Below, piece after piece: positions 2,077 to 17,487 of a stretch of DNA of 17,487 nucleotides (position 1 is its first letter; every line of letters starts with the position of its first letter). Below the pieces are notes generated by a model that was not told the DNA's origin, searched no databases, and saw nothing but the letters and a program-made list of their open reading frames with translations. Source of the stretch: Sulfurimonadaceae bacterium (GTDB lineage: Bacteria > Campylobacterota > Campylobacteria > Campylobacterales > Sulfurimonadaceae); the NCBI GenBank assembly GCA_041562555.1, contig JBFEXS010000036.1:1-17487 (forward strand), written 5' to 3'. A program made the position numbers and the translations under genes.

Positions 2077-2087
2077 GTTTCATCCTT

Positions 2088-2687
2088 TTAATGCATCCAG
2101 TCGGCGTAGGTTCCATAGGTTTTATAGGCCTCATAATCCTTCTTATAGTACTGGATGATATCTGAGATTTGCCAGGCATCAAGATAGCCTACATGCACAA
2201 AGAGTGTATGTCCTTCGGGAGAAAACAGACGGTGCTCGGGTATGGTCTTATACCATAGACGTGCGGATAGCACATGCTGGGGGTCCAATTGATGACGCCT
2301 CGCCCACTCTTTTGCGGTCTGTACCGTGGCATGGTCATTGTATGCCGTACTTTTTCCTGTCATGATCGTGATGAAGTTGACATCAGAGCTGTATCGTGCC
2401 TGGACCTGTCTGACCTGGGGAGCCTGTCGCTGACAGGTCTTGCACCATGATGCGGCATACTCTGCCCAGAGATATTTTCCCTCATACAGTGCTATAGGGA
2501 CCTCTTCACCGAGAGCATTAAGGCGAGGCGGCATATTGAGAACATGTGAGTAGGAGGTATCGGACATGTTCCCGACGAGTGACTCAAGTCCTTTCATCTC
2601 ACCCCAGGAACGTTCTACCACTGCCGGGTTCTCTTCGCTGCAGGCATTGAGAAACAGAACGATCAAGATAAAGCATAGATAGCGCAC
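2088..2687 (-). CDS. Thioredoxin-fold (TlpA/ResA-like) lipoprotein
   Basis: WCKTC CxxC motif at 2433-2447 and a downstream cis-Pro-like TIPEH. Start re-called to GTG at 2687 because AAAGGAG (2694-2700) precedes it and it yields a lipoprotein signal (MRYLCFILIVLFLNA-C). Confidence 0.8.
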   Translation of the reverse strand: MRYLCFILIVLFLNACSEENPAVVERSWGEMKGLESLVGNMSDTSYSHVLNMPPRLNALGEEVPIALYEGKYLWAEYAASWCKTCQRQAPQVRQVQARYSSDVNFITIMTGKSTAYNDHATVQTAKEWARRHQLDPQHVLSARLWYKTIPEHRLFSPEGHTLFVHVGYLDAWQISDIIQYYKKDYEAYKTYGTYADWMH

Positions 2688-2800
2688 GGATGACTCCTTT
2701 AGATGAGTATACTTCATACAGTGATAAGATGCTATTAAGAAGTGCAATAAGTTTTGCTTTTTCAGTATTCAAACAGAGCGATAGCATAAGCTCTTTTATG

Positions 2801-2806
2801 TACAAT
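2801..2806 (+). promoter_or_regulatory. Sigma70-type -10 box (TACAAT), probably giving a leaderless methyltransferase mRNA
   Basis: TACAAT ends 7 nt before the ATG at 2814 and no SD-like sequence lies in between. Confidence 0.45.
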
Positions 2807-2813
2807 ACGTTTT

Positions 2814-3731
2814 ATGCTTACAATTGAGAATTTACAATCAGATTTATTGGAAAAGATCCGTTTAAAGGACGAAGAGTTTACGCGTCTGTTCCATGGGCGA
2901 GGCGGATGTTATGAGGGCTGGGAGTTCTTGACAATCGATTCTATCGACAGAGTCCTGAGCATCGCGTATTTTGACGAAATAGATGAAGATCTGGATACGC
3001 AACTGCATGAGATGTTTGCACGGATCTATCAAAGCGGTGCCTATGCGTCTCTTGTCTTGCAGCGACGTTATCTGCCAAAGGCTCCTTCCGAGGTGATCTT
3101 TGGAGAGCTTGATGAGAAAGTGTATGCCATAGAAAACGGACTTAAATACAAGCTCAATCTGCTGAACAATCAAAACAGCGGTCTCTTCGCTGATATGAAA
3201 TTGGGACGCTCTTTTGTACGTGAGCAGGCCCAAGGAAAGCGGGTGCTTAATCTTTTCGCATACACCTGTGCCTTTTCTGTGGCGGCGTATAAGGGCGGAG
3301 CAACTTCGGTGGTCAATGTGGACATGAGCAAGAAGGTGCTGGAGACAGGCAGGGATAATCACCGCCTCAATGGTGTTGAGGTCCGCGGCACGCGTTATAT
3401 GCCCTATAATATACTCAAGTCTTTCTCGCGTATAAAGAAGGCCGGTCCTTATGACCTGATCATTATCGACCCGCCGAGTTTTCAGAGGGGAAGTTTTGCT
3501 GCGACAAAGGATTATCAAAAGATCATTCGCCGTCTCAATGAGCTTGCAAGTGATACGTGTACAGTACTTTCATGTCTGAATGCGCCTAATCTGGATTCAC
3601 AGTTTGTTATAGATCTGTTTAAAGAGGAAGCACCTGAATTCCGTTTTATACGGCGTTTGGAAAACCTGGAGAGTTTTCCGAGCAAAGAGAGTGAACGGGC
3701 CTTGAAAAACCTGGTTTTTCAAAAGGACTAG
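2814..3731 (+). CDS. Class I SAM-dependent methyltransferase, RlmI/RlmK-like family
   Basis: SGLFADMK, the VLNLFAYTCAFS SAM-binding motif, VNVDMS and DLIIIDPPSF are characteristic of RlmI/YccW/RlmK-type enzymes. Confidence 0.85.
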   Translation: MLTIENLQSDLLEKIRLKDEEFTRLFHGRGGCYEGWEFLTIDSIDRVLSIAYFDEIDEDLDTQLHEMFARIYQSGAYASLVLQRRYLPKAPSEVIFGELDEKVYAIENGLKYKLNLLNNQNSGLFADMKLGRSFVREQAQGKRVLNLFAYTCAFSVAAYKGGATSVVNVDMSKKVLETGRDNHRLNGVEVRGTRYMPYNILKSFSRIKKAGPYDLIIIDPPSFQRGSFAATKDYQKIIRRLNELASDTCTVLSCLNAPNLDSQFVIDLFKEEAPEFRFIRRLENLESFPSKESERALKNLVFQKD

Positions 3732-3737
3732 GCCCTG

Positions 3738-6254
3738 CTATCGTTGCATTTTTGCAACAAAACCTTCTGCAAGGATGAGAAGAAGATCCCCTAAGAAACC
3801 ACGTGTTTTCTCATCATTGGCCTTAAGTGCCTCGGTAGAAAGCTTTTTCATGTAATAGGCATCATCAAGTTTCCATTCGTTCGTGACACTCTTATCTTCT
3901 TGAAGAGTCAGGGCATACTGGTATTTGTTCATCAGGTGAATCACATCCGAGAGTACCATCAGCTGTTTAAAGCCATTTTGTATATCGTTCTCAAGGCTCT
4001 CATCATCTTTCACGCCGTCATAACCGGCTTGAGCGATCTCGTTGCGGATTTTCGCATAGGCCTCAAGTTGCTCCATTAACTCTGTCAGAATCTCTTCATA
4101 TGGGTGAACAGGTTCTTCTTCCTGTACCTCTTGGGTCTCTTCTTTTGGTGTTGTCTCACCTTTTTTGAATGCTTCAAAGGCTTCTGCTTCTTGTTGTTTC
4201 ATCTCTGCAAAGCTGAGTGTTTTTTTCGCTTGTTCCTGCGCGAGCTTTGCTTTGTCTCTCTCATCAGCAATGAGATCTGCTTTTTCATCAATTTTTTTAA
4301 GATCAATCCATACGTCATCCAGAGTGCGCGAGAGCATGATGTTCGCGGCCAGAGCATATTGGCCTTTTGGAAAAGTGTTCAAGAAGAGATTGAAGTCTTC
4401 CGGTGCCTTTGAACCTTCGAGTTGTTTCCAGAACTTTTTCTCGACCTCTTGCATACTGATCTCTTTATCGCCAAGCCCTCTGTAGCGTCTTGGATAAGAG
4501 TAGCGCTTGTTGAAGTTATACCGGGAAGTCGTATGGTAACGGTTTCGGTAATATGTGTTGCGATTGTAATAATAGTTCTTTCCAGGCGGAGTGTAGACCC
4601 TGTTGAGTTTGTGCTGCTGCATGATAGGAACATTATGCACATATCGTGGCGTGTAGTAGTTTGTCCTTTTGTTCAAGTTGTTATAGTAGTTCTGGGAACT
4701 GTTGCTGCTCCCGGTGTTTGTCCAATATTTCAGTGTACCGTTTTTGGTTTTTCTTGTGTTCAGGTTCCACTTGTAATATTTTGAAAAATCAATGGTCTTG
4801 ATCGGAGCTGTCTGACTCAGTTTATACTGTTTCTTCGGAGGGGTATAAGTAACCGGCTTATATCCAAATCCAGTGGGTTGCAGACGAATAGGCTCACAAG
4901 CGATGGCATAATAGACACCGGGTTGGCATTTTGGACGTTTCCGCTTTGGCGGGAGATGTTTAAGTTGACGTTTCGGCGGGACATAACGACCCGTAGTCTG
5001 TTTATTAGGAAGTTTATATACGCGACGGCGATCGTAGCATTTTCTGGATTTGAAAGGGTTGTTACAGCTGCTGCTGCAGGGCCATCGCGTACACGGGTTC
5101 CAGGCTCTGCTGGCAGTATTGTTGTTCTCTATATCCTTTATCGTTTGCAATGCTATGGTATGGTATTTTCCATTTGGAAAATGGTTTGCGAAGCTTTTGA
5201 GTTCAAGTTTATTGACGGAATCTTTGACAAGAGCCCATGTGGCTTCTTCCCCGTCTGTTGCAACACCTTTTGGCATTCCCCAGTTCTCATTTTCATCAAG
5301 GGTGACCTCTTCGGCTTCAGAACTGTTCTCATCCAGACCTCGGGTGACACTGATCATCCCGCTTTGAGGAGCTATGGTCTGTGGTGTCGTTTCGACAGTA
5401 GCAGCACTGCTTAGGAAAATGAAATCACCTTTATCCAGATTTGGATTGCGTATCTTCCCATATTGTGGGTGTTGAGCATTTTTAGAATAGTTGACGACAC
5501 TGTCTTGTAGAAAACTGCTGAGTTCACTTCCTGTGATGTAGCCGTCTTTATTAAGGTCTCCTTCTCCTTCAAGAGCAGAGATGAATTGGCGTCGGAATAT
5601 ACTTTTGTCCGGTACTTTTTCATTTTCCGTTCCCGAAGAGATAAACATACGTACGGGCTTGGATGTCTTATAGGAGATATTCTCGGGAAGCGCTCGTGTC
5701 ACCGAGAAGATCGATCCGGAAAAACAGCTGTCAAATAGGAAGATTGCATGTTTTGCATCTATGTTTAAGGCATATTCTTCAATCCTTTGCAGACTGAGGG
5801 CACGGTTTTTAAACTCTCCCGGTTTTTTAAGAGGGTGAGGAGCATTTGTCGGGATGATATATCCTAAATGATCTCCTCCGTATTTGGGTTTGAGCGTATA
5901 TCCGTGGCCCGCAAAATAGAATAGAAGACGGTTCTCATAGGTACTTCCGTATTTTTGTATGAAGTCTTCAAAGGCGGCACTTAATTCCGTATCGTTTGGA
6001 TCAAGTACCGTCGTGACATGAAACTTTTGTTTCTCCAAAGCCTCTTTTACTGCCTGGGTGTCTTCTTTTACACCTTCTAGATCAGGCCACTCTGTCGTAT
6101 AGTCACTGACACCTATGACAAGTGCATAGCTGCCCGTATACAGTGTTGTCTTTTTACCATCGTTTAGATCTACAATGACTTCCGTGTTTGAAAGTAGAAA
6201 CATAGGAAGACACAGCAGAATGAAAAAGCGTAATGTCGCATATCGAATCATCAT
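3738..6254 (-). CDS. Secreted caspase-family (peptidase C14, orthocaspase-like) multidomain protein
   Basis: N-terminal hydrophobic signal, YALVIGVSDY, catalytic dyad YFAGHG (His117, 5904-5906) and FLFDSCFSG (Cys177, 5724-5726), and QHPQYG at the end of the domain. These are followed by two W...FPxGxY helical modules, a basic Tyr-rich segment and an acidic coiled-coil-like C-terminus. Confidence 0.9.
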   Translation of the reverse strand: MMIRYATLRFFILLCLPMFLLSNTEVIVDLNDGKKTTLYTGSYALVIGVSDYTTEWPDLEGVKEDTQAVKEALEKQKFHVTTVLDPNDTELSAAFEDFIQKYGSTYENRLLFYFAGHGYTLKPKYGGDHLGYIIPTNAPHPLKKPGEFKNRALSLQRIEEYALNIDAKHAIFLFDSCFSGSIFSVTRALPENISYKTSKPVRMFISSGTENEKVPDKSIFRRQFISALEGEGDLNKDGYITGSELSSFLQDSVVNYSKNAQHPQYGKIRNPNLDKGDFIFLSSAATVETTPQTIAPQSGMISVTRGLDENSSEAEEVTLDENENWGMPKGVATDGEEATWALVKDSVNKLELKSFANHFPNGKYHTIALQTIKDIENNNTASRAWNPCTRWPCSSSCNNPFKSRKCYDRRRVYKLPNKQTTGRYVPPKRQLKHLPPKRKRPKCQPGVYYAIACEPIRLQPTGFGYKPVTYTPPKKQYKLSQTAPIKTIDFSKYYKWNLNTRKTKNGTLKYWTNTGSSNSSQNYYNNLNKRTNYYTPRYVHNVPIMQQHKLNRVYTPPGKNYYYNRNTYYRNRYHTTSRYNFNKRYSYPRRYRGLGDKEISMQEVEKKFWKQLEGSKAPEDFNLFLNTFPKGQYALAANIMLSRTLDDVWIDLKKIDEKADLIADERDKAKLAQEQAKKTLSFAEMKQQEAEAFEAFKKGETTPKEETQEVQEEEPVHPYEEILTELMEQLEAYAKIRNEIAQAGYDGVKDDESLENDIQNGFKQLMVLSDVIHLMNKYQYALTLQEDKSVTNEWKLDDAYYMKKLSTEALKANDEKTRGFLGDLLLILAEGFVAKMQR

Positions 6255-6282
6255 ATAAATACCCCCGAAGAAATTGAGAATT

Positions 6283-6291
6283 ATTATAGCA
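6283..6291 (-). promoter_or_regulatory. Extended -10 promoter (TGCTATAAT) for the caspase-like gene
   Basis: Perfect TGnTATAAT on the minus strand ~30 nt upstream of the ATG at 6254. A GGGGG SD-like run lies at 6262-6266. Confidence 0.6.
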
Positions 6292-6314
6292 AATTTCTAT
6301 TTACAGGGGTGATT

Positions 6315-7664
6315 TCAAGTGTGTTTTTTAACAGCACTGAGTTGAAGTTCGAAGCAGGCACCCTCATCGGTATTATACGCGGTGATCTTGCCACCATGGG
6401 CGTCGACAATAATCTTGGCCATATAGAGGCCAATACCCGTACCATAAGTGTTGTAGGGTTTAAAGAGGGTCTCTTCTGCTATCGCGTCGGGAATACCTGC
6501 GCCGTTATCACAGATTGTCAGTGTAAGACGGTTGTTGTTATATGTACTATTGATGGTGATTTTACCCTCTATAGAAGAGAGTTTTCCTGCTTCGATACGA
6601 CTTAAGATAGACTCCTTGGCGTTGGAGACGATGTTAAGCAGCGCCTGGGAAAACTCATTGAAATATCCTTCGATAAGTATTTTGTCATTTGGCGTCTGGT
6701 GGATAAACTTTATATTCTTGGAGTGAAGTTGATGGCGCAGTAGCTTTTCTACATCCTGAATGGAACTATCTAAAGAGAAGAAAGCTTTTTCTCTATCTGG
6801 CGTAAGAAATTTTGAAAAATCGGTAATGGTGTGATTCATATAGTCAATCTGGGTCATCAGCTCGTTAAAGAGTTTGTCAAGGGATACCTCTTTGGAGAGT
6901 TCCTTGCGTAATTTCGCAGCCGCAATAATGGATGTGCTGGTGGCTAAAGGTTGTTTCCATTGGTGGGATACGGAAGCCACCATCTCTCCCATCATCGCCA
7001 TTTTGGACTGCTGTATCAGAAGTTCTTCCTGTTGTTGCTTCTCTAACAGGGCTTCTTGGACCTTTGTTTCGAGATTTTCTTTGTGGTCTCGAAGTTCTTT
7101 GTTTGCCCTGTTGATGACTTCAAAGGCCTCTACACGACTCAGCTCAAAATAATAGATCAGCAGGATGATGATGAGGTAGGTGAAGAAGAGGTTTGTAAAG
7201 GAGACCGCAGTGAAGGGAACGCTTTCAAAGGTATCGATACCCATGAATGCAATACTTAAGACTACAAGTATATAGATAGTAGTGATGAGGGTTCCTTTGT
7301 TAAGTCCTTTCAGGTAGATGGCCAGGGTTGGAAAGATAAGGGCCTGTGCAAAGGCATAGTCTTTATGGTTTTGATCATATATAAATAGTAGCGTCAGTGT
7401 AAAGATCGTAAAGAGCAGCAGGGTGCCCGAGAGTGAGATATTTCCTTTTTTTATCAAGAAATACCAACTGAGTCCAACCAGCAAAAGGCTGATGATCTCC
7501 AGTCCGGCAATGTAATAAAGCTTAGTATAAAATAGATTGTAAGTGATATAAAAGGAGAGCACGAAGGCCGCGATGTAGAGGGTGGATAGAATCAAAAAGG
7601 CCTGACGATAGGACTTTTGGTCTATGTCCAGGCCCAGGTTTTTATTTAAGAGTGAATGGAACAC
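6315..7664 (-). CDS. Membrane-bound sensor histidine kinase (HisKA + HATPase_c)
   Basis: About six N-terminal hydrophobic segments, a coiled-coil linker, H-box MGEMVASVSHQWKQPL, N-box QALLNIVSNAKE, G1 DNGAGI and G2 GTGIGLY. GTG start with an AAGGGGG SD. Confidence 0.92.
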   Translation of the reverse strand: MFHSLLNKNLGLDIDQKSYRQAFLILSTLYIAAFVLSFYITYNLFYTKLYYIAGLEIISLLLVGLSWYFLIKKGNISLSGTLLLFTIFTLTLLFIYDQNHKDYAFAQALIFPTLAIYLKGLNKGTLITTIYILVVLSIAFMGIDTFESVPFTAVSFTNLFFTYLIIILLIYYFELSRVEAFEVINRANKELRDHKENLETKVQEALLEKQQQEELLIQQSKMAMMGEMVASVSHQWKQPLATSTSIIAAAKLRKELSKEVSLDKLFNELMTQIDYMNHTITDFSKFLTPDREKAFFSLDSSIQDVEKLLRHQLHSKNIKFIHQTPNDKILIEGYFNEFSQALLNIVSNAKESILSRIEAGKLSSIEGKITINSTYNNNRLTLTICDNGAGIPDAIAEETLFKPYNTYGTGIGLYMAKIIVDAHGGKITAYNTDEGACFELQLSAVKKHT

Positions 7665-7756
7665 GAGACATCCCCCTTCTCACAAAAATAGATATTTGAT
7701 GCTCTTATGATACTATAATTCATGGTAAAGTGTACTTTGGCCTGTTCTCGTCCATA

Positions 7757-8050
7757 TTATTCGGATACAGATCTGACTTTTTCTGAAGGTTTGGAAATGA
7801 TCTCGATGTAAAACTCTTCCCATTCACTTTCTTTTGCTTTATCAATGCAAGAAGTGATCTCGGAGACCTTTATGAGATTTGCGTCATCGAGGTTCTTCCC
7901 GAACTTGCAGTCAAAGTCCCAAAAAGCGGATTCTCCCGGCAGTTTTTTCTTGCGTTCACGTTTGAGATAGCGGCGGATGTCATATTTGATCGATTCGATT
8001 ACACGATCAGGATGTTTGTTTGCTTGGGTCAGCTTAAATGTCTTCTTCAA
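7757..8050 (-). CDS. Conserved small protein, DUF6172-like
   Basis: MKKTFKL...IKYDIRRYLKRERKKKLP...FWDFDCKFG...FYIEI resembles the DUF6172 family from recall. TTG start preceded by AAAGG. Confidence 0.65.
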   Translation of the reverse strand: MKKTFKLTQANKHPDRVIESIKYDIRRYLKRERKKKLPGESAFWDFDCKFGKNLDDANLIKVSEITSCIDKAKESEWEEFYIEIISKPSEKVRSVSE

Positions 8051-8121
8051 AAATAACCTTTGTAATTAGTATGACATTGTACAGGAGAACTACTTGCGAT
8101 ACAATATATGAGAGGAAAATT

Positions 8122-8823
8122 ATGAATATATTCGTAACGGGAAGTTCGCGGGGATTAGGTGAGGCATTTGTAAATCATTACCTGACTTTGGGATGCAAGG
8201 TTTTGGGCATTGGACGATCGGAGGTAGAACGAAGGGACTATCTGTACAGACGTGTGGATATCTCCGATGAAAAGGAGTTGAAAAAACTGTTGGAAGAGAT
8301 GTTCCAAGAGATCAGTACACTTGATTTGATCGTCCTTAATGCGGGCATACTAGGGCGTATACAGGACGTCTCCGCATGTGATATGAAACAACTCAAAAAA
8401 GAGATGGATGTCAATATGTGGGCGAATAAGACGATCTTGGATTTTTTTATTGAAAAGAAGATTCCTGTCAAGCAGGTGATTGCTATATCATCGGGCGCAA
8501 GTGTGAACGGTTCTTTGGGGTGGAACGGCTATTCCCTCTCCAAAGCTGCCTTGAACATGCTGATCAAACTGTATGCCAGCGAGATGAAACAGACGCATCT
8601 GACCGCACTGGCTCCGGGCTTGGTCAAGACAGAGATGCTCGACAGTATTCTTCACGGTAGTCATGACACTGCACGTTATACCAGTGTACAAAGTCTGCGT
8701 GACAGTGAGGCGGCGGGTTTGGTATATACGCCTAAAGCAGTCGTTGAAAAGATCGTCTCATATCTACCCAGAATACGCAAGGAGTCAAGCGGTTCTTTTG
8801 TGGATATACGTGACCTTATCTAG
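8122..8823 (+). CDS. Short-chain dehydrogenase/reductase (SDR; benzil/sepiapterin-reductase-like)
   Basis: TGSSRGLG nucleotide-binding motif, LNAG, ISSGAS, catalytic YSLSK and APGLVKT. Start re-called to ATG 8122, which follows a GAGG SD and a TACAAT -10 at 8100-8105. Confidence 0.9.
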   Translation: MNIFVTGSSRGLGEAFVNHYLTLGCKVLGIGRSEVERRDYLYRRVDISDEKELKKLLEEMFQEISTLDLIVLNAGILGRIQDVSACDMKQLKKEMDVNMWANKTILDFFIEKKIPVKQVIAISSGASVNGSLGWNGYSLSKAALNMLIKLYASEMKQTHLTALAPGLVKTEMLDSILHGSHDTARYTSVQSLRDSEAAGLVYTPKAVVEKIVSYLPRIRKESSGSFVDIRDLI

Positions 8824-9463
8824 GCGGGCAGACAAAATAGCGCATGTTGATCGCTTTGAGCGTCGGGCTCCAGCCGATGTAACAGTCGTTTTTCAGCTGT
8901 TTCCAGTTCGTCTGAAAATAGTGTTCGAACACCTCACTGACATCACGATCAATGACAGCCATCCAGATAAAACCGACCTCTTTGAAGGCATGCACCTCCT
9001 TGCGCTTTCGAATAAGTTCCCGGAGGATGAACTCGACTCTGCATATATCATCCTCCCCGTCAAATGTGGCATAATCAAAGCTGGAGGCTATATGGCTGAC
9101 ACCGGAGATCTTTTTCCAAAAATCTCCGGTTCGTTTTGCTTCAAAAAGCGTCTCTTCCGGTGCATTTTCTTTCAGTGCAAGAAATTGTACGCAATGTACG
9201 GCCTGAGGTATTTCCGTCTTGATCGACTTCAAATGTGTCCTTGAATATATTGCAGGAGTTTCTCCCTTCTCGTCCAGAAGCCCGTTTTTCTCAAAGAATG
9301 AGACTGTCTCAGGCTCTTTCATCCTTGTGCGTGAATGGATTATGGAGATAGGAAAGGAGTCTTCCCATATCGTAGAACCTTCATTCAGGTGTGTCAAAAA
9401 GTTTTCTTCGGATAGATCACTCTTCTTTAGAGCAGCTTGGATCTCATTGACCAGTGTTTGCAT
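8816..9463 (-). CDS. Hypothetical protein (215 aa)
   Basis: ATG with an AAAGGAAG SD and an upstream TATAAT (9487-9492). It fills the gap between the SDR and yjbQ and has a globular-looking composition. No family recognised. Confidence 0.65.
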   Translation of the reverse strand: MQTLVNEIQAALKKSDLSEENFLTHLNEGSTIWEDSFPISIIHSRTRMKEPETVSFFEKNGLLDEKGETPAIYSRTHLKSIKTEIPQAVHCVQFLALKENAPEETLFEAKRTGDFWKKISGVSHIASSFDYATFDGEDDICRVEFILRELIRKRKEVHAFKEVGFIWMAVIDRDVSEVFEHYFQTNWKQLKNDCYIGWSPTLKAINMRYFVCPPR

Positions 9464-9571
9464 AAGGCTTCCTTTACATGAATGGCATTATAACTCTAAA
9501 GCTTATTGTTATTCTTATCTATAGTTTCTTGGACTATAATTTCAGCCAGTTATTATACACGGAGGTGATCC

Positions 9572-9991
9572 ATGAAAATGCAGCAACAAGAGATCCGTCT
9601 TAAAGCATATGCCAGAGGGTTTCATATCATCACGGATCTTATTGAAGAGACCATCTCGAAGATGGATGCCGTGGAAACAGGGATGATGCACCTGTTCATC
9701 AAACACACAAGTGCTTCACTCACGATCAATGAGAACGCAGATCCCTCTGTCCTGGAAGACATGGAGTCTTTTTACACGGACACAGCGGATGATAAAGCAT
9801 ACTATATCCATACCTACGAAGGAGCGGATGATATGCCGGCGCACATCAAAAGCACTCTGCTGGGCTCATCTGTTTCTATCCCTATATCGAATGGACGTCT
9901 GGCACTTGGGACATGGCAGGGGATTTATCTGGGAGAACATAGAGATCACGGGGGAAGGCGTGAGTTGGTACTGACGCTTTGGGGTGTTTAA
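9572..9991 (+). CDS. yjbQ: YjbQ/UPF0047 family protein (secondary thiamine-phosphate synthase enzyme)
   Basis: Signature motifs HTSASLTINENADPSV, EGADDMPAHIK and LGTWQGIYLGEHR. GGAGG SD and TATAAT at 9535-9540. Confidence 0.93.
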   Translation: MKMQQQEIRLKAYARGFHIITDLIEETISKMDAVETGMMHLFIKHTSASLTINENADPSVLEDMESFYTDTADDKAYYIHTYEGADDMPAHIKSTLLGSSVSIPISNGRLALGTWQGIYLGEHRDHGGRRELVLTLWGV

Positions 9992-10563
9992 CGCTCTATA
10001 AGAAGGTAGTGGCGCTTGTCGGTCTTGATGATCTTCACATGCTCGGCATCTTGGATCTCATCATAGACCCGTTCTCCTTTGAAGAACAGCAGCAGGGTGC
10101 CTTTGACGATAAAAGGCTGAGCAAAATCCATCAGGGTCTTTGTCTCTGTGACCGCCCGGGAGGTAATGAAGTCATAGGCAATCGGGGGAACCTGCTCGAT
10201 ACGCTTATTGAGTACCTCGACATTATTCAAACCCAGATCCGCTTTGATGAACTGCAAAAAACCTGCCCGCTTGGCCAAGGGTTCTACCAGGGTGAATTTT
10301 GTCGAACGCAAGGCCATCGCAAGTATCAATCCCGGAAAGCCTGCCCCCGTACCGATATCAAGAGCATTATTGATCTTGGGTAGGAAGCTTACAGGAAATA
10401 CAGAATCATATATATGCTCTGCGACCAGTTCTCTGGTCGTAGCTCCGGTAAGGTTATGGATCTTATTCCATTTAAGAAGGTGATCGGTATAGCGTTCGAC
10501 ATGCTCATAAAAGGTGTCAGGCAGAACGATCTTATCGGATTCAAGTTGGGCTTTTAGGTTCAT
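9988..10563 (-). CDS. rsmG: 16S rRNA m7G527 methyltransferase RsmG (GidB)
   Basis: LLKWNKIHNLTG, HIYDS, LDIGTGAGFPG, ITSRAV and FKG motifs. Its stop overlaps the yjbQ stop at TTAA 9988-9991. Confidence 0.96.
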   Translation of the reverse strand: MNLKAQLESDKIVLPDTFYEHVERYTDHLLKWNKIHNLTGATTRELVAEHIYDSVFPVSFLPKINNALDIGTGAGFPGLILAMALRSTKFTLVEPLAKRAGFLQFIKADLGLNNVEVLNKRIEQVPPIAYDFITSRAVTETKTLMDFAQPFIVKGTLLLFFKGERVYDEIQDAEHVKIIKTDKRHYLLIER

Positions 10564-10597
10564 AGTTTGACTTTATCAGTGGGTTAATCGTGATTGA

Positions 10598-10642
10598 ATT
10601 ATATCCAATTCGATCTCAAAGGGGTAGTAGATGCGCTATAAT
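10598..10642. promoter_or_regulatory. Divergent -10 boxes for rsmG (minus, 10598-10603) and the permease (plus, 10637-10642)
   Basis: Two perfect TATAAT hexamers in opposite orientation, each 25-35 nt upstream of its start codon. Confidence 0.5.
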
Positions 10643-10667
10643 TGCCTATCTTGATTGTGAGACATGA

Positions 10668-11627
10668 ATGAAACTGTTTTTGAAAAAAATGCTCTATTTG
10701 GCCTTTATGCTGTTGTTGATCTCTTTGATCTCCTTTGGGGCGATCCACGCTGCACCGAACAGTTTCTTCTCGGCAGGGGAACTTAATCCGAACATGACTC
10801 CCGAGGTCTTGGCACACCTCAAAGCGGTGTATGGGTTGGATAAACCTCTGCATATTCAATATCTTGACTGGATGAAGAACCTTCTTCAACTGAACTTTGG
10901 TGTCTCCTTTGTCAGTGGTCAGGAGGTGATCGACATGGTCAATGACCGTATCGGGATCACCCTTGTCATGAACATTGTCTCGATGTTCTTTGTCTTTGTA
11001 CTTTCGATCTACCTGGGGATAGTAGCTGCGATGAAGAGTGGAAGACTGAGCGATCTGTTGATCCGCCAGCTTTCGCTCTTTTCCTTTTCAATGCCTTCGT
11101 TTTATCTGGCACTCTTGCTTATACTGGCCTTATCGGTAAAACTGGAGTGGTTCCCAATCGCAGGACTCCATTCTATTGAGCCAAAGGAAGGATTCGCTTA
11201 CTACCTGGACATGGGATGGCATCTTTTTTTACCGATCTTCGTGATGGTCTTTGTCTCTTTAGGCTCGATGATCGTCTATGTGCGTTCTCTGGTCACCGAG
11301 ATACTTAAAAGTGACTATTACTTTTTTGCCAAGGCCAGAGGCTTGGAGGATAAGGTGCTCTTGCGATATTATGTGCTTCCAAACCTGATGCCACCGATCA
11401 TTACCCTGCTGGGGCTCTCCTTACCGGGTCTTATCGGGGGGTCTGTCATCCTGGAATCTATCTTCGGGATAGAGGGAATGGGACAGCTTTTTTATATGTC
11501 TGCTCTGAGTCGGGACTATCCGGTGATCATGGGGATCTTGATGGTCACAGCCTTTTTGACTCTTTTGGGAAATATGCTTTCTGATCTCATCCTGCTAAAA
11601 CTCAATCCCTATTTCAAACGCAGCTAG
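10668..11627 (+). CDS. ABC transporter permease, DppB/OppB/NikB family
   Basis: YGLDKPLHIQY, LNFGVSF, SMPSFYLA, EAA-like loop SDYYFFAKARGL, ESIFGIEGMG and SRDYPVIMG. Multiple transmembrane segments. Confidence 0.93.
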   Translation: MKLFLKKMLYLAFMLLLISLISFGAIHAAPNSFFSAGELNPNMTPEVLAHLKAVYGLDKPLHIQYLDWMKNLLQLNFGVSFVSGQEVIDMVNDRIGITLVMNIVSMFFVFVLSIYLGIVAAMKSGRLSDLLIRQLSLFSFSMPSFYLALLLILALSVKLEWFPIAGLHSIEPKEGFAYYLDMGWHLFLPIFVMVFVSLGSMIVYVRSLVTEILKSDYYFFAKARGLEDKVLLRYYVLPNLMPPIITLLGLSLPGLIGGSVILESIFGIEGMGQLFYMSALSRDYPVIMGILMVTAFLTLLGNMLSDLILLKLNPYFKRS

Positions 11628-11629
11628 GC

Positions 11630-11857
11630 TTATTGAAAATAGATAAAACAGATGCTTAGCAGGATAAACCCCATTCCAAACAGTTTGTAAAACTTTCCTG
11701 CCGATTCAATGGCTTTTTTCTCATCCTTTGTCTGTTCCAGTGTCTTTGTATAGATCTTATACCCAGAACCCTTGTCGTAACGCAGTAAAAATTTTATAGG
11801 CAAGACAATCAGTAATATGCCGATGCCAAAAAAGATCGAGATGATGAGTTGATGCAT
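11630..11857 (-). CDS. Small two-TM hypothetical membrane protein (75 aa)
   Basis: Two hydrophobic segments flank a charged loop. AAGGAG SD at 11866-11871. Confidence 0.7.
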   Translation of the reverse strand: MHQLIISIFFGIGILLIVLPIKFLLRYDKGSGYKIYTKTLEQTKDEKKAIESAGKFYKLFGMGFILLSICFIYFQ

Positions 11858-11877
11858 GATAGAGACTCCTTCGTGTC

Positions 11878-11906
11878 ATCTTAACGCAACTGGCTTTTGC
11901 TGTCAA
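11878..11906 (-). promoter_or_regulatory. Putative sigma70 promoter TTGACA-N17-TAAGAT for the small membrane protein gene
   Basis: On the minus strand, TTGACA (11901-11906) is followed by a 17-nt spacer and TAAGAT (11878-11883), just upstream of the SD. Confidence 0.45.
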
Positions 11907-11974
11907 TTCTGCAATTTATCCACGATTAGTTTTTATGCTTAGGCTGTGTAAAAAATTATACTAAGGGGAAAAAC

Positions 11975-13951
11975 ATGAAACGTGTACAATTGAGTATTTT
12001 AACATCGGTGTTCCTACTGTTGGGTTCGCCACATCTGCTTGTGGCACAAGAGAGTACTATCACAGAAGTAAAAGCCTATCAAGAAGTCAGTATCACTTCG
12101 GCAATACAGGCCCTGTTTGGTCATGTTAATGTGATACCGGATCCAAGAGTCATTTTGGAAGCACCGCAAATAGCTTCCAACGGAGCTGCTGTCCCTGTGC
12201 GGATTCGTACGACTATCCCTGCCAGGCGTATCGCACTCTTTCAAGATGCGAACCCTAAAGCATTGGTCGCAGTGTGGGAGCTGCATAAAAAAAGTGTGGC
12301 TGATTTTGAGATCAAAATCAAACTAAGAAGTGACGGGAATCCTAAGACCATCCGTGCGGTTGTCGAAGGGACGGACGGACGGTTGTATTACAGTGATGTA
12401 CAGATACAGATCGCTTTAGGAGGATGTGATGGTAGCGAAGGCAGTTATTCCGCTGCACCTTCTAGACCGGCCTATATGTCCGGACGAAGCTATGTACCTG
12501 CATCTCAAATCTCGCCCATGTCACTGCAAACTCCTCAACCGGGCAATACGGAGGAGTATAAAGCTATTAATGAAAACGGCTTCAAAGAGGTGCGCTCTTC
12601 GGCGCTGTCTACCTTTAGTACGGATGTCGACACCGCCTCGTATACAGTGATACGAAATTATCTTATGCAGCGTAACACGCTGCCTCCAAAAGATGCAGTG
12701 CGTATCGAAGAGATGATCAACTATTTTGAGTATGACTATGAGGAGGCAAGGGATGATCAACCTTTTTATATCAATACCCGTGTTGGAGAGAGTATCTGGA
12801 ACAAAGATACGAAGGTCATACAGATAGGCTTGCAGACGCAAAAAGTGGATATCAATGAACTTCCCGCAAGCAACCTGGTCTTTCTACTGGATGTATCAGG
12901 GTCGATGTATGCACCGAATAAACTGCCACTGTTAATCAAATCCCTTAAGCTGCTTGTGCAACAGCTGCGTGCGGTGGACAGGGTCTCTATCGTAGTCTAT
13001 GCAGGCTCATCAGGAGTGATTCTCAATCAGGCAAGCGGAGAAGAGAAAGGACGTATATATGCCGCTTTGGATAGTCTGCGAGCCGGTGGAAGTACTGCCG
13101 GAGGAGCAGGTATCAGGTTGGCCTATGATCTTGCTCAGCGTGCATTTATCCCTGGTGGAAACAACAGGGTGATACTTGCAACGGATGGAGATTTCAATGT
13201 AGGGGTGCGTAGTGAAAGTGCATTGGGTGAACTCATAGAGCAAAAACGTCAAAGCGGGGTGTACCTGAGTGTCCTCGGTTTTGGCAATGGAAATTATAAA
13301 GATAATCGTATGGAGGCATTGGCGGATAAAGGAAATGGAAACTACGCCTATATCGACAGCTTGCTTGAAGCCAAAAAGGTCTTGGTCACACAGATGAGCG
13401 GTACCCTGTATACCGTGGCCAAAGATGTGAAGATACAGGTGGAGTTCAATCCGGCAAAGGTACACTCCTACCGACTTATCGGATATGAGAACCGCTTGAT
13501 GGCAAATGAGGATTTTAATAATGACAAAAAGGATGCCGGAGAGATCGGTATGGGACACAGAGTCACCGCATTGTATGAGATCATTCCTGTATCCGATGAG
13601 CAAACACACCGAGTCGATCCATTGAAATATCAGTATGTCAGCTCTAATGATTATGAGGAGTTGGCCACGGTAAAGATACGTTATAAAGAACCTGACAAAG
13701 ATGAGTCGATACTGATGAGCAGCAGTGTCAAACCTGAGAGTTCGATGATCTCAAGGGATGATTTCTATTTTGCTCAGAGTGTGGCAGGATTCGGGATGAT
13801 ATTACGTAACTCTGTATATGCAAAAGGGCTTCAATATAAAGACGTGATAGCCTTGGCAAAAGATTGTAAGGGGATAGACAGAGACGGACATCGGGCGGAG
13901 ATGATTAAAATCATCGAAAAGGCGGAGATACTGCGACAGCTTCGGTATTAA
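11975..13951 (+). CDS. Secreted fusion protein: SoxY-like sulfur-carrier domain + YfbK-type von Willebrand factor A module
   Basis: Signal peptide at aa 1-24. SoxY-like domain at aa ~33-153 (APQIASNGAAVPV, ALFQDANP, IKL...AVVEGTDGRLY...IALGGCDG). Ser/Pro linker. YfbK motifs STFSTDVDTASY, AVRIEEMINYF, MIDAS FLLDVSGSM (12890-12904), ILATDGDFNVG, VAKDVKIQVEFNP, YRLIGYENR and DAGEIG. AAGGGG SD. Confidence 0.88.
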   Translation: MKRVQLSILTSVFLLLGSPHLLVAQESTITEVKAYQEVSITSAIQALFGHVNVIPDPRVILEAPQIASNGAAVPVRIRTTIPARRIALFQDANPKALVAVWELHKKSVADFEIKIKLRSDGNPKTIRAVVEGTDGRLYYSDVQIQIALGGCDGSEGSYSAAPSRPAYMSGRSYVPASQISPMSLQTPQPGNTEEYKAINENGFKEVRSSALSTFSTDVDTASYTVIRNYLMQRNTLPPKDAVRIEEMINYFEYDYEEARDDQPFYINTRVGESIWNKDTKVIQIGLQTQKVDINELPASNLVFLLDVSGSMYAPNKLPLLIKSLKLLVQQLRAVDRVSIVVYAGSSGVILNQASGEEKGRIYAALDSLRAGGSTAGGAGIRLAYDLAQRAFIPGGNNRVILATDGDFNVGVRSESALGELIEQKRQSGVYLSVLGFGNGNYKDNRMEALADKGNGNYAYIDSLLEAKKVLVTQMSGTLYTVAKDVKIQVEFNPAKVHSYRLIGYENRLMANEDFNNDKKDAGEIGMGHRVTALYEIIPVSDEQTHRVDPLKYQYVSSNDYEELATVKIRYKEPDKDESILMSSSVKPESSMISRDDFYFAQSVAGFGMILRNSVYAKGLQYKDVIALAKDCKGIDRDGHRAEMIKIIEKAEILRQLRY

Positions 13952-13957
13952 ACTCGA

Positions 13958-14000
13958 TGTTGGTATAGGCAGAGGGGCTTTGCTCCTCTGGCATACAGCA
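13958..14000. terminator. Hairpin between the convergent SoxY-VWA gene and nusA; possible bidirectional terminator
   Basis: Core stem CAGAGGGGC-TTT-GCTCCTCTG (13970-13990, one G-U pair), extendable imperfectly by GTAT/ATAC and TGTTG/CAGCA. No strong U-tract on either side. Confidence 0.45.
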
Positions 14001-15134
14001 TTATTTGAAAAGTGCCTCAAGGGAATCAATACCCTCTTTCTCTTCTTCGATCTCTCCGGTCTGGGAAGTAACGGTGCCTTCTTGCTCTTCAAGTTCGATA
14101 GCATAACCGGTAAGCATGGATGCAAGACGGATATTGATACCGCTTTTTCCGATCGCTTTGGACTTCTGATCTGAAGGAAGGATGACCTTTGCTTTTTTGT
14201 CTTCACCCTCGGCAGTATCTTGAATGACAACCGAGGAGATGATGGCCGGACTCATTGCACGGGAGATGAAAAGTTCCGGAACATTGGTGTATTCCACACA
14301 GTCGATATTCTCACCGTTCAGCTCTTCGCTGACGGCGTTGATACGTACACCCTTGACCCCTACGGTCGCACCTACAGGGTCGATCTTAGGATGGGTTGAG
14401 TACAGGGCGATCTTGGCACGCTCACCGGGAATACGTGCAGAGTGCTCGATCACGACGCTCTCGTCATTGATCTCAGGTACCTCAAGACGTAGAAGCTCCT
14501 CTAGAAACTTAGGAGAGGTACGGGAAAGTTCGATCACCATCCCGTCGGTTTTATCGACATTGACACGACGTACGACTGCTTTAAGGATATCACCTGCATT
14601 GAAGACCTCTCCTTTGATACGGCTCTTCATCGGAAGTACGGCACGGATCTCATCAAGCTCTACAAAGGTGTTGTTCGCTGAGTCAACACGAGTAACACGT
14701 CCGGAGATGATGGTACCGACTTTATTTTTGAACTTGTTATACAGTTCATCCTCTACCAGGCGTTGGATATGGAATTCGATCTCTCTATGAAGTTGGCCGG
14801 CAGCAGTACGCCCATAATCTTCAAGTTTGTGCTCATACTGCAGTTGGTCATCGATCTCTACATCCTCATCCAGTTCTTTTGCTTCAGTCAGTGAGATATA
14901 TGCGTCAGCCAGTTCCCCCTCTAGCTCTTCTGCATCGTCTTTAACAACGGTAATAATCTGGAATATACTTGCTGCACGTGTCTCTTCGTTGATTTCTACC
15001 TCATAGTCAAAGTGGTCTGAAATAACGCGTTTAGCAGTCTGTATGAAAGCAGTTTTAAGTGCCTCTTTTACTTTTTCCGGCTCTAGGCCTTTCTCGTGTG
15101 CAATTGATTCGATAATATCTACGATTTTTTCCAT
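14001..15134 (-). CDS. nusA: Transcription termination/antitermination factor NusA
   Basis: S1 and KH motifs: IELSRTSPKFL, LEVPEI, ARIPGERAK, DPVGATVGVKGVRI and AIGKSGINIRLA. Start re-called to ATG 15134 (MEKIVDIIE), which follows an AAGGA SD. Confidence 0.98.
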   Translation of the reverse strand: MEKIVDIIESIAHEKGLEPEKVKEALKTAFIQTAKRVISDHFDYEVEINEETRAASIFQIITVVKDDAEELEGELADAYISLTEAKELDEDVEIDDQLQYEHKLEDYGRTAAGQLHREIEFHIQRLVEDELYNKFKNKVGTIISGRVTRVDSANNTFVELDEIRAVLPMKSRIKGEVFNAGDILKAVVRRVNVDKTDGMVIELSRTSPKFLEELLRLEVPEINDESVVIEHSARIPGERAKIALYSTHPKIDPVGATVGVKGVRINAVSEELNGENIDCVEYTNVPELFISRAMSPAIISSVVIQDTAEGEDKKAKVILPSDQKSKAIGKSGINIRLASMLTGYAIELEEQEGTVTSQTGEIEEEKEGIDSLEALFK

Positions 15135-15246
15135 GGTTATATCCTTACAAATTTTCTGAAACATTGATAAGTTTAATAGGGGGAGACGATTCACCCACAC
15201 ATCCCATACACAGGGTATTTGGTAAATCTTATCAAAAGAGAAGAGT

Positions 15247-15297
15247 ATTATACTAAAAATAGCCTTAATACGTACTTTAGTAATAAAAAGATATAAT
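15247..15297. promoter_or_regulatory. Divergent -10 boxes for nusA (minus, 15247-15252) and the HP0268-miaB operon (plus, 15292-15297)
   Basis: Two perfect TATAAT hexamers in opposite orientation in an AT-rich intergenic region. Confidence 0.55.
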
Positions 15298-15348
15298 CGC
15301 GGTATTCATAAAACTCATAATGAGTAGAGATAAGAAAAGGAAATGACA

Positions 15349-15591
15349 ATGGAATTGAAGTTAGTACGTACAGAAATCAACGCAAAACCGAAAAAGACAG
15401 ACCTTGCAAAAATCGAAGCGATGGTAGAAAAAGATGGATCAGCGATCATCTATTTTGATAGAGACAACTCGCATAAAGACCTTATCGCATTGGGCGAGCA
15501 CTTTGAAAACTCGGAAAAAAGCTTTTACATGAGAGAAGTCCGTTATGGTCTTAACGATAACGACTACATGTACGAAGTACACGTTTTATAA
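15349..15591 (+). CDS. HP0268 family protein (small nuclease-like, Campylobacterota)
   Basis: MELKL...YFDRDNSHKDL...FYMREVRYGL..DYMYEVH resembles HP0268, and the position upstream of miaB matches known synteny. ATG 15349 is better spaced from the AAAAGG SD than ATG 15343. Confidence 0.85.
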   Translation: MELKLVRTEINAKPKKTDLAKIEAMVEKDGSAIIYFDRDNSHKDLIALGEHFENSEKSFYMREVRYGLNDNDYMYEVHVL

Positions 15592-15621
15592 TTTTTGTAC
15601 ATATTGCCAATAGAAGATTGA

Positions 15622-16926
15622 ATGTCTAAAAAAGTATTTATTGAAACACTCGGTTGCGCGATGAATGAGCGTGATACGGAACACATGATCGCAGAGTTGA
15701 GTGAAAAAGAGAATTATGAGCAGACCAGTGACAGTGACGATGCCGATCTGATCATCATCAATACCTGTTCGGTGCGTGAGCGTCCTGTACATAAACTCTT
15801 TTCCGAACTTGGCGGCTTTAACAAGAAGAAAAAGCCGGGTGCCAAGATCGGCGTGTGCGGTTGTACGGCATCACACCTTGGAAAAGATATCATCAAACGG
15901 GCTCCCTATGTGGATTTTGTTCTGGGTGCACGTAATGTCTCAAAGATCACAGAAGTGATCCATAAGCCCAAAGCAGTCGAGATCGATATCGATTATGATG
16001 AGAGTCAGTTCGCTTTTAAAGACTTTAGAAGCTCCCAACACAAGGCGTATGTAAACATCTCAATAGGGTGTGACAAGTCCTGTACCTTTTGTATCGTTCC
16101 TAAGACCCGGGGAGACGAGATCTCGATACCAACCGATCTGATCCTCAAAGAGTGTGAAAAAGCGACAGAGGCAGGGGCACAAGAGATCTTTCTTCTGGGA
16201 CAGAACGTCAACAATTATGGACGCCGTTTTTCCGGTGAGCATGAGAAGGTGAATTTCACAGAACTGCTTCGACGCATCTCCAAAATCGATAAGGTCAAGC
16301 GTATCCGTTTCACCTCTCCCCATCCTTTTCATATGGATGATGAGTTCTTGGAAGAGTTCGCTGCCAATGACAAGATCTGTAAGTCCATGCATATGCCGCT
16401 TCAAAGTGGCTCGAGTGAGATCCTGAAAGCGATGAAACGTGGGTATACCAAAGAGTGGTTCCTAAACCGTGCGAAAAAACTGCGTGAGATGGTTCCTGAC
16501 GTATCGATTTCAACGGATATCATCGTCGCTTTCCCGGGTGAGAGTGATTCGGATTTCGAAGATACTATCGATGTGATGAATCAGGTGAAGTTTGATCAGG
16601 TATTTTCTTTCAAATACTCCCCTAGACCATTGACAGAAGCGGCTGAGATGACCAATGAAGTAGATTCGGAAGTCGCAAGCGAGCGACTCGCGTATCTGCA
16701 AGGTTTTCAGAATTCCATCACCGATGAGATCACCGCCTCGTATCTGGATAAAGAGTATGAGGTCTTTTTTGAAGAAGTGCGTGAAGGGGGCTTTATCGCC
16801 GGACGCAGTGACAATAACATCTTGATCAAGGTCCAATCCGATGATGAAAGTCTATTAGGTACCTTCGCCAGAGTCAAGGTCGTCAAGACCGGCCGCATGG
16901 CACAAATCGGAGAACTTCTTGTTTAA
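15622..16926 (+). CDS. miaB: tRNA-2-methylthio-N6-dimethylallyladenosine synthase MiaB
   Basis: UPF0004 N-terminus ([21 protein letters not shown]), radical [38 protein letters not shown] and a C-terminal TRAM-like domain. Confidence 0.97.
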
Positions 16927-17487
16927 AAAGCTCTCCCGAAAGCTTGCTCTCCTTCTTCTCCCTTTTGTAGGCTCCATCTTTATCCGTCTGATCTATTGGA
17001 CAACACGCAGCAGTTATCATCATCCCGAGTCAATGCCTGAAGAACGATGCGTGATCGGATTTTGGCATGGAGATCTTCTGATGCAGCCCTTTAACTATTT
17101 TCAATGGAAAAAAGAACCGAAGATAGCCGTGATGATATCAGACCATTTTGATGGTGAACTTTTAGCCAAGACTATGTCCTATTTCGGTTTGGAAACAGTG
17201 CGTGGGTCTACCCGTAAAGGGGCTGCCAAGGCCTTGATACAAGCGATCAAGAAGGTACGCGACGGATATGACCTTGGATTGACACCTGACGGCCCGAAGG
17301 GACCGCGGTTTTCCGTCTCTGAAGGGATTATCGCAATCGCACAAAAGAATGATTCCTATATCGTCTTGCAAAATGCTGTTCCAGACCGCTATTGGCAGCT
17401 TGGTTCCTGGGATAGGTTCGTGGTACCTAAACCCTTTGCCCACATCGATTACTATTGCTGTGAACCATTTAAGGTAACGGGTATGGA
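16919..17487 (+). CDS. lpxJ: DUF374 / lysophospholipid acyltransferase family, likely lipid A acyltransferase LpxJ; 3'-truncated
   Basis: Absent from the ORF track because it has no stop in the window. TTG at 16919 overlaps the miaB end and follows GGAGA. It translates [16 protein letters not shown]...FWHGDLL...ISDHFDGE...VRGSTRKG...TPDGPKGP, and follows miaB as in Helicobacter/Campylobacter. Confidence 0.8.

Follow-up and report, generated by a model that had tools for sequence, protein, structure and literature searches.

In Sox sulfur oxidation, SoxY is the hub: a small subunit, exported through the twin-arginine translocation (Tat) route, whose free C-terminal arm visits each enzyme of the pathway. 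What, then, is the role of a SoxY domain whose arm lies in the interior of a much longer chain? The question is raised by a 17,487-nucleotide stretch of DNA from a Sulfurimonadaceae bacterium of the Campylobacterota (assembly GCA_041562555.1, contig JBFEXS010000036.1, positions 1 to 17,487; hereafter the window), where a single open reading frame (ORF) encodes a protein, P0001, that joins SoxY to a complete von Willebrand factor type A (VWA) module of the kind named after Escherichia coli YfbK. The fusion proves to be genuine, conserved and of narrow taxonomic range. It amounts to a SoxY paralog whose arm is internal and which sits on a VWA scaffold, and we weigh below what such an arrangement may do.

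Domain architecture of the SoxY-VWA protein

The P0001 reading frame opens with ATG and runs uninterrupted over 658 codons, and an earlier note on this DNA had given its coordinates and described it accurately. That note had proposed that a GGC-armed SoxY domain is followed by a linker and then by an entire YfbK-type VWA protein with its metal-ion-dependent adhesion site (MIDAS), an architecture now borne out by Pfam, by alignment with a solved SoxY structure and by conservation (Table 1). The profile check that it suggested for the N-terminal region returned the SoxY family (PF13501) at 81.5 bits, where the cut-off is 28.4 (E 6.8e-23, a match covering profile positions 2-112 of 112). The domain also aligns end to end with Chlorobium SoxY (Protein Data Bank entry 2nnc, E 7e-12), the P0001 arm (QIQIALGGCDG) overlying the C-terminal VKVTIGGCGG of that structure. 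The corresponding check for the vWF_A, VWA and DUF3520 families (the last now YfbK_C) found all three above their Pfam cut-offs and in YfbK-type order. These E-values and the length of the frame are far beyond chance, and by domain criteria P0001 is a member of both the Pfam SoxY and the YfbK-type VWA families. It carries no SoxZ match in Pfam and no protease domain in Pfam or NCBIfam.

An AlphaFold2 model built on 49 family members (mean predicted local distance difference test score, pLDDT, 79.9; predicted template modelling score 0.63) displays a confident beta-sandwich at residues 53-147 (pLDDT about 90), disorder across residues 150-196 and a confident VWA module thereafter. Ahead of the SoxY domain the chain begins with MKR, followed by a hydrophobic run and then LVA|QE, which reads as a putative signal peptide. 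In the VWA domain we take D306, S308, S310, T374 and D404 to be the MIDAS residues, following the DxSxS..T..D motif. Base composition is even across the SoxY/VWA junction. A look-up in the ESM Atlas returned generic VWA/YfbK clusters only (scores 0.83-0.87), which serve as leads only.

Table 1. Location of the features of the fusion gene in the window, and of related loci
Feature	Location	Strand	Basis
Whole ORF, protein P0001 (658 aa), SoxY-linker-vWF_A-VWA-YfbK_C	11975..13951	+	ORF and Pfam
Shine-Dalgarno-like AAGGGG, 6 bases 5' of ATG	11963..11968	+	read from sequence
Putative Sec-type signal peptide, about aa 1-23, without twin-arginine motif	11975..12043	+	inferred from sequence
Mature SoxY domain, aa 24-153 (Pfam match aa 45-151)	12044..12433	+	Pfam, 2nnc, model
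Carrier arm ALGGCDG, aa 147-153 (Cys151 codon 12425-12427)	12413..12433	+	conservation, 2nnc alignment
Disordered Ser/Pro/Tyr/Gly-rich linker, aa 154-194	12434..12556	+	pLDDT <50 at residues 150-196
vWF_A (PF12450), N-terminal domain of YfbK module, aa 191-282	12545..12820	+	Pfam, 115.8 bits
VWA (PF00092), aa 300-463	12872..13363	+	Pfam, 57.3 bits
Presumed MIDAS DVSGS, aa 306-310 (plus T374, D404)	12890..12904	+	DxSxS..T..D motif, conservation
YfbK_C (PF12034, formerly DUF3520), aa 476-651	13400..13927	+	Pfam, 228.6 bits
soxY(Tat)-soxZ-fusion modules	L002:6624-9369; L020:6682-9420	one strand	locus annotation
Second SoxY-VWA family (Sulfurovum metagenome-assembled genome; P0122, 665 aa; P0161, 728 aa)	L035:9938-11962		locus and profile search

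Distribution and conservation of the fusion family

The earlier note had suggested looking for the same architecture in other genomes, and SoxY followed by vWF_A, VWA and YfbK_C is indeed common to 55 of the 120 best database clusters (the window's own included), as well as to the loci L001, L002 and L020. These 55 clusters come from independent sources or contigs and are 55-74% identical to P0001. As far as sampled, the family is confined to sulfur-oxidizing Campylobacterota, under the labels Sulfurovum, Sulfurimonas and Sulfurovaceae. The records are named only as "von Willebrand factor type A domain-containing" or "DUF3520", with both Pfam domains already precomputed. The earlier note knew of no described SoxY-VWA fusion, and none is described in the open full text that our search covered. 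The sequences themselves were already in databases under generic names. The portions seen of a survey of 1631 SoxY sequences cover SoxYZ fusions and arm variants and never VWA (PMC11237559), and in the accessible passages of a 2026 Sox survey "fused" refers to sox(AX) rather than to SoxY-VWA (PMC13500833).

The carrier Cys is kept in all 55 fusions, mostly as (A/S)(L/I)GGC(D/E/G)G, with G149 and G150 kept in at least 90% of sequences. C151, D306, S308, S310, T374 and D404 are invariant in the 49 aligned fusions, an alignment that omits six near-duplicates (P0008, P0010, P0012, P0014, P0019 and P0028, absent from alignments A1 and A4); a further alignment, A2, holds 20 of the 55 fused SoxY domains. 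Mean pairwise identity among the fusions is 0.24 in the linker, 0.64 in vWF_A, 0.75 in VWA and 0.64 in YfbK_C, and the distance from the Cys to vWF_A ranges from 21 to 65 residues with a median of 38 (49 fusions).

Beyond residue 25, 38 of the 55 fusions contain no other Cys. At least nine carry a second Cys 2-6 residues past the first (CEGC, CGGSC, CGGGC, CDGSSC), and these proteins (P0031-P0044, P0055 and relatives) fall in two adjoining subclades of the VWA tree described below. Directly after the carrier Cys, 26 of the 55 have D, 17 have G and 12 have E. The idea that an acidic residue at this position (GGC-D/E-G) serves as a MIDAS ligand within the same chain was dropped as a general rule because of the 17 fusions with Gly.

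Comparison with free SoxY

Free SoxY sequences were drawn from a scan of species-representative genomes with the fused-SoxY profile, using one peptide pattern ([VI]V[EQ]GxDG[KRQ]LY) and keeping the best 80 of 90 relatives. The scan skipped the orphan SoxY genes beside L002 and L020 and is unfit for counting fusions or sox co-occurrence. It yielded 76 free SoxY and four fusions (L001, L002, L020 and L035). The YfbK-type junction is present in the first three of these, hence in 3 of 80 loci, while L035 joins SoxY to another VWA protein.

The fused head differs from its free relatives in several respects. In all 76 free SoxY the arm is C-terminal, the chain ending 0-1 residue past the GGC[EG]G-type arm, whereas in P0001 the arm is internal, with 507 residues beyond Cys151. 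The RRxhh twin-arginine motif is present in 73 of the 76 free proteins, the remaining three being cut by contig ends; within the first 35 residues it is found in none of the 55 fusions, by a pattern that does not count the RRFLP of P0026. A SoxZ ORF lies directly downstream of 72 of the 76 free SoxY (by an ATG-only rule), and SoxZ at these loci has no signal peptide of its own. Seven of the 76 loci were annotated: five have the order soxC-dihaem cytochrome-soxY-soxZ, another has a SoxH-like hydrolase in addition, and the last reads soxX-soxY-soxZ-soxA..soxB. The fusion thus sets an internal arm, a Sec-type rather than a Tat signal and about 500 extra residues against the free form, has no adjacent soxZ in the window, and has lost a Glu of the predicted SoxZ interface.

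There are likenesses as well. Free SoxY of the SoxYZ carrier (solved for Paracoccus, 2ox5/2oxg, Chlorobium, 2nnc, and Thermus, 4uwq), and here especially those encoded in Campylobacterota soxC-cytochrome-soxY-soxZ clusters, have in common with the fusion the Pfam SoxY fold across the full profile, the mature N-terminus ..YR.TKP.AW.., the blocks APxxASNGxxVP and VVEGxDGKLY, the arm ..(V/I)ALGGC(D/E)G with its invariant Cys and, perhaps, the ability to pair with SoxZ. The fused head thus retains the mature SoxY sequence and its Cys, but its arm is no longer terminal, its Tat signal is gone and, in the window, no soxZ lies beside it. P0001 is not a true SoxY by its score on the NCBIfam equivalog TIGR04488 (81.1 bits, below the curated cut-off of 125), by its arm, by its signal or by its gene neighbourhood. 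Control free SoxY from Campylobacterota also fall under this cut-off (117.4, 106.9 and 101.4 bits), so that the shortfall of P0001 is only partly specific to the fusion.

Origin of the fusion

The earlier note had raised the possibility of an assembly chimera, and we considered likewise a read-through of two adjacent genes. Both are refuted: the same in-frame junction recurs in 55 independent clusters and in L001, L002 and L020, the trees of the two halves agree, and base composition does not change at the junction. In a tree of 131 SoxY domains a single branch (Shimodaira-Hasegawa-like approximate likelihood ratio test support 99) separates 53 fused from 78 free domains. The fused head is not traceable to one particular free paralog in this unrooted tree, where one branch parts all fused from all free. 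In a FastTree phylogeny of the VWA part from all 120 listed proteins, the 55 fusions and three N-terminally cut fragments (P0067, P0076 and P0096) form a clade of 58 with support of 87. Its sister clade comprises 18 YfbK proteins without the fusion, five of which bear the name Sulfurovum (joint support 94). A lipobox Cys lies near residues 18-24 in 15 of the 18 (at residue 54 in P0068), the other three being N-terminally cut. Pairwise identities of the SoxY and VWA halves correlate (Pearson 0.65, 1176 pairs).

Since the trees of both halves group the fusions together, one old fusion of a Campylobacterota soxY with a lipoprotein-type yfbK fits, and a single event followed by vertical spread would be the simplest history. 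A new linker of low complexity would have connected a Campylobacterota-type soxY, whose free forms end in ...VALGGCEG-stop, with a VWA gene of the yfbK type, and because the nearest yfbK-type relatives are lipoproteins, the SoxY domain would have taken the place of the lipid anchor.

The locus of the fusion is held in common with its nearest syntenic relative, L001 (labelled Sulfurimonas sp. UWMA-0129), which repeats the window's gene order of GidB, ABC permease, fusion, NusA, HP0268-like, MiaB and DUF374. Most flanking proteins of the two loci are 85-93% identical (DUF374 76%) while the fusion proteins are only 65% identical, and therefore the fusion gene either evolves fast or has been exchanged at a fixed locus. 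Among the syntenic genes a 215-residue ORF with no family match (window 8816-9463, minus strand) also evolves fast, at 41% identity to L001.

Genomic context and pairing with SoxZ

Five fusion loci have DNA context: the window, L001, L002, L020 and L035. The neighbours of P0001 are housekeeping or unrelated genes (RsmG/GidB, ABC permease, NusA, HP0268-like, MiaB and DUF374). Two of the five, namely L002 (Sulfurovum) and L020 (Sulfurovaceae), have a Tat-type soxY, soxZ and the fusion in succession on one strand with short gaps, and no further sox gene lies within the fetched flanks. The orphan SoxY of both modules are long-branched members of the free group in the SoxY tree, and that of L020 ends in ..TSPGCEG, without Gly-Gly before the Cys. 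By comparison, Campylobacterota typically have soxABXY1Z1 and soxCDY2Z2, according to PMC12936845.

The co-encoded SoxZ of L020 allowed the pairing to be modelled, with the L020 protein rather than P0001. Folded together with this SoxZ, the L020 fused head (residues 18-146) reached 0.92 in three runs, against 0.11 for the best of three controls; the mark applied is reached by 116 of 157 solved complexes and by 2 of 215 mismatched pairs. At least 99% of contacts are common to the runs, and the partner's pLDDT is 92 or higher. The model supports the ability of the L020 head to pair with SoxZ, but because SoxYZ complexes have already been solved (2ox5, 4uwq), passing the mark may reflect likeness only and not actual binding. 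At the level of single positions the consensus gives no signal either way (agreement at 14 of 26 interface positions and 58 of 95 others), and at the predicted interface a Leu is fixed in the fused heads where free SoxY has Ala.

Other observations concern the surroundings of related loci. Genes of conflict-system type (TIR-TPR, KAP P-loop NTPase and AAA_21) lie near two fusion loci (L002:3040-4863, L035:7326-9038 and L035:13057-13944). A conflict-system role, suggested by these genes and by caspase-like genes near some copies, was dropped, as the fusion has no PADLOC match; the PADLOC anti-phage models returned no family for P0001 or for the L035 protein. Campylobacterota-type soxY genes are also present in L009, L017 and L031 (with soxZ downstream in L017 and L031), from metagenome-assembled genomes labelled Mollicutes, Flavobacteriaceae and Proteobacteria, labels that likely reflect binning contamination or outdated naming.

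Relation to other SoxY chains and VWA proteins

A profile search of 1.84 billion representatives returned 2270 proteins at E up to 1e-3. Among the best 150 of these, a Cys falls within the last five residues of 114, and 103 begin with an RRxFL-like motif. The long matches comprise the present family (P0011), a second SoxY-VWA family (P0122, P0161), single chains of SoxY-SoxZ and chains of SoxZ-SoxY. Also observed were SoxZ-SoxY followed by Sel1 repeats in P0269 (640 residues) and Sel1-SoxY in P0163 (257 residues). The top match, P0121 (3047 residues, 17 stretches), is a cadherin-repeat protein that meets only the last third of the profile, and was set aside as a repeat artefact.

The second SoxY-VWA family, to which the L035 protein is 62% identical, resembles P0001 in its Sec-type signal, SoxY head with Cys arm, linker and VWA domain with a MIDAS-type DxSxS, and the two are collinear at 26% identity over 490 residues. 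It differs in having no Pfam vWF_A or YfbK_C match and in a conserved CxxxxC (..C.SLFCP..) before the VWA domain. The carrier Cys is kept (AKAGCEG, VGGCDG), and the L035 domain, the only member of this family in the SoxY tree, falls on the fused side. That SoxY and VWA stay together at such deep divergence suggests a pairing older or more recurrent than the YfbK-type family itself, and argues for functional coupling.

Three further groups of proteins resemble P0001 in part. The nearest YfbK-type VWA proteins, which are of lipoprotein type and several of which are named Sulfurovum (P0059-P0083), share the three Pfam domains, an intact MIDAS and 62-71% identity over the YfbK part, but have a lipobox Cys near residues 18-24 and a short linker where P0001 has a signal peptide, SoxY and a linker. 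Single-chain SoxY-SoxZ carriers (TIGR04557, quinoprotein dehydrogenase-associated SoxYZ-like) share a GGCGG arm that is internal and followed by a linker, and are thus a precedent for the internal arm; two of the four examples (P0179 and P0231) also share a short Sec-like signal, and a Tat-type start is found in none of the four (P0179, P0231, P0239 and P0268). They differ in that the C-terminal partner is SoxZ and not a VWA module, and P0001 matches TIGR04557 at 57.9 bits (cut-off 140) with its SoxY half only. SoxYZ-S2/S4 of PMC11237559 are of this single-chain type. Structural comparison of the P0001 model with Foldseek gave as best matches ArnB/VWA2, 4fx5, inter-alpha-inhibitor heavy chain 1 and pilus tip adhesins (E 1e-18 to 1e-11). 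Each of these centres on a VWA domain, taken here to be a MIDAS-dependent binding module; they differ from P0001 in having no SoxY domain, with query-normalized TM-scores (template modelling scores) of 0.25-0.29 and identities of 10-17%.

Possible roles of the fusion

The reading that we tentatively favour, as plausible though somewhat short of probable, is that the fusion acts as a periplasmic tether, holder or sensor beside the Sox cycle, with a thiol-active, SoxZ-binding head and a MIDAS-binding tail, rather than as a standard turnover carrier. Exported unfolded through Sec, unlike the Tat-exported free SoxY, the fusion would pair its SoxY beta-sandwich with a SoxZ and present the invariant Cys on a flexible internal arm. 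This Cys could carry sulfur in sulfane or persulfide form, or be bridged as S-S(n)-S to a second thiol, for instance that of free SoxY; for free SoxYZ, cross-linking through arm cysteines and polysulfide adducts on SoxY are reported in PMC5336275. Some 40 disordered residues farther on, the vWF_A-VWA-YfbK_C module would bind an envelope or protein ligand through its intact MIDAS, and the whole would serve to hold, sense or place a SoxYZ-like unit loaded with sulfur. Because its arm does not end freely at the C-terminus, the protein would work beside the cycle. We prefer this role to that of a turnover carrier because all 76 free arms are terminal and because, in the SoxB-SoxYZ structure, the arm reportedly enters the enzyme end-first. 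The earlier note's putative periplasmic scaffold linking sulfur carriage or sensing to MIDAS-mediated binding is compatible with all of the findings.

Several observations weigh against this role. No sox gene occurs among the 16 ORFs neighbouring P0001 in the 17.5-kb window, neither tblastn nor a SoxZ profile over six frames detects SoxZ there, and L001 has neither soxZ nor any other sox gene in the fetched locus. The SoxY head is the least conserved folded part of the fusions (mean pairwise identity 0.49, against 0.64-0.75 for the VWA module), and the positions predicted to contact SoxZ show no more conservation than the remainder of the domain (0.63 against 0.61). The fused heads do not conserve an interface Glu (NPE) that 96% of free SoxY have; with contacts otherwise unremarkable, some lineages, that of the window among them, may therefore have altered or lost the pairing with SoxZ. 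A Sec-exported head would, moreover, have to meet a free SoxZ that has no signal peptide of its own. The premise that SoxB and SoxAX would be unable to serve an internal arm is an inference from structures, and among the literature matches listed no title or abstract reports a function for YfbK.

Alternatively, the fusion may be a true third Sox carrier, its arm loaded by SoxAX and processed by SoxB and SoxCD while the VWA part only anchors it at a given site, for example at the outer membrane, on a sulfur globule or at the surface of solid sulfur. We consider this doubtful. Its arm, ALGGC[DE]G, is nearly the VALGGCEG end of SoxY from soxC-cytochrome-soxY-soxZ clusters, the Cys is invariant, the L020 head models well with SoxZ (though that score may echo the solved SoxYZ complexes), and SoxY arm variants in Sulfurimonas denitrificans are reported in PMC11237559 to be linked to S8 oxidation. 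The strictly terminal arm of free SoxY suggests, however, a constraint that the fusion breaks; P0001 lacks the Tat route and an adjacent soxZ, no sox enzyme gene adjoins any of the five fusion loci, and fused domains score 81 and 77 bits on the SoxY equivalog against 101-117 for free Campylobacterota SoxY. A sulfane or redox sensor, in which the state of Cys151 (thiol, persulfide, or disulfide or polysulfide bridge) alters VWA binding and so couples aggregation, attachment or envelope signalling to sulfur load, strikes us as unlikely. An invariant Cys on a disordered arm beside a linker would suit such a switch, the second Cys of at least 9 of the 55 fusions could close an S-S(n)-S loop, and a non-fused relative, P0116, bears an N-terminal zf-HC2 anti-sigma domain (PF13490), by analogy with which YfbK modules may be parts of periplasmic sensors. 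Yet that second Cys is missing from P0001 and most fusions, and no regulator adjoins the gene in L001, L002, L020 or L035. In the window, a gene some 4 kb upstream on the opposite strand encodes a MASE6 histidine kinase that may or may not be linked. Less likely again would be a covalent tether to sulfur, in which the arm Cys reacts with S8, polysulfide or a SoxYZ persulfide to give Cys-S(n)- while the MIDAS grips the envelope or Sox enzymes, so that the cell, or its Sox machinery, would be docked to sulfur in solid or stored form.

The remaining explanations deny the fused arm its chemistry or its internal position. That the SoxY domain is merely structural, an Ig-like spacer or SoxZ-binding handle without sulfur chemistry, all function residing in the VWA part, is improbable. 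The N-termini of YfbK-type proteins are interchangeable (lipobox, CarboxypepD_reg, Cys-rich domains, zf-HC2) and the SoxY part evolves faster than the VWA part, but the Cys is retained without exception in the fusions, with flanking Gly in at least 90% even though surrounding residues vary, and the L035-type family retains the same Cys. More improbable still is a pro-protein whose cleavage right after GGC[DEG]G sets free a normal SoxY, its arm now terminal, and leaves the VWA part as a protein of its own. As far as the arm, the sequence does correspond to an entire mature SoxY, and it is precisely at ...GGCEG that the free SoxY of Campylobacterota end; against this, the variable residue after the Cys and the poorly conserved linker offer no cleavage motif, P0001 contains no protease domain, and the existence of free soxY genes makes such a route needless.

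Other features of the window

No Rfam family at gathering thresholds and no tRNA by ARAGORN was found within the window, and a promoter and terminator scan around the P0001 gene gave nothing exceeding shuffled controls. In the 347-base gap upstream of the fusion gene lies a 75-residue ORF with two hydrophobic stretches (11630-11857, minus strand), preceded on the same strand by a -35/-10-like site (TTGACA..TAAGAT, 11906-11878); its equivalent is not open in the matching gap of L001.

Four other genes on the window are of note. An 838-residue protein (3738-6254, minus strand) has an N-terminal hydrophobic segment, a caspase-like Peptidase_C14 domain at residues 43-232 (PADLOC "caspase" model, 3.1e-10), a long low-complexity middle rich in Tyr, Asn, Lys, Arg and Pro, and a C-terminal part with no Pfam match. 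The MASE6-HisKA-HATPase sensor histidine kinase (6315-7664, minus strand) has no response regulator among the neighbouring ORFs scanned. A 219-residue protein (2088-2747, minus strand) combines a lipobox-like LNAC with weak thioredoxin-like matches under the Pfam cut-offs (22.7 and 21.9 bits), and a 437-residue ORF running off the 5' end (1-1314, plus strand) has no match in Pfam, NCBIfam or PADLOC.

Implications

The fusion clade keeps the SoxY head and its Cys while breaking three rules of its free relatives, in where the arm sits, in the export route and in the soxZ neighbourhood, and adds a MIDAS module. For the YfbK-type VWA family, the fusion offers a context in which a ligand can be sought. 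Should the arm prove to be a covalent tether to sulfur, a carrier-protein thiol would be coupled to adhesion in a new way, and the widespread YfbK family would gain its first functional handle. A head that still binds sulfur would make the fusion a third kind of SoxY in the dominant sulfur oxidizers of vents, sediments and sulfidic caves. The 2026 survey counts soxY paralogs outside clusters and calls the transfer of zero-valent sulfur from the periplasm unclear (PMC13500833); the fusion described here could bear on the handling of zero-valent sulfur in Campylobacterota.

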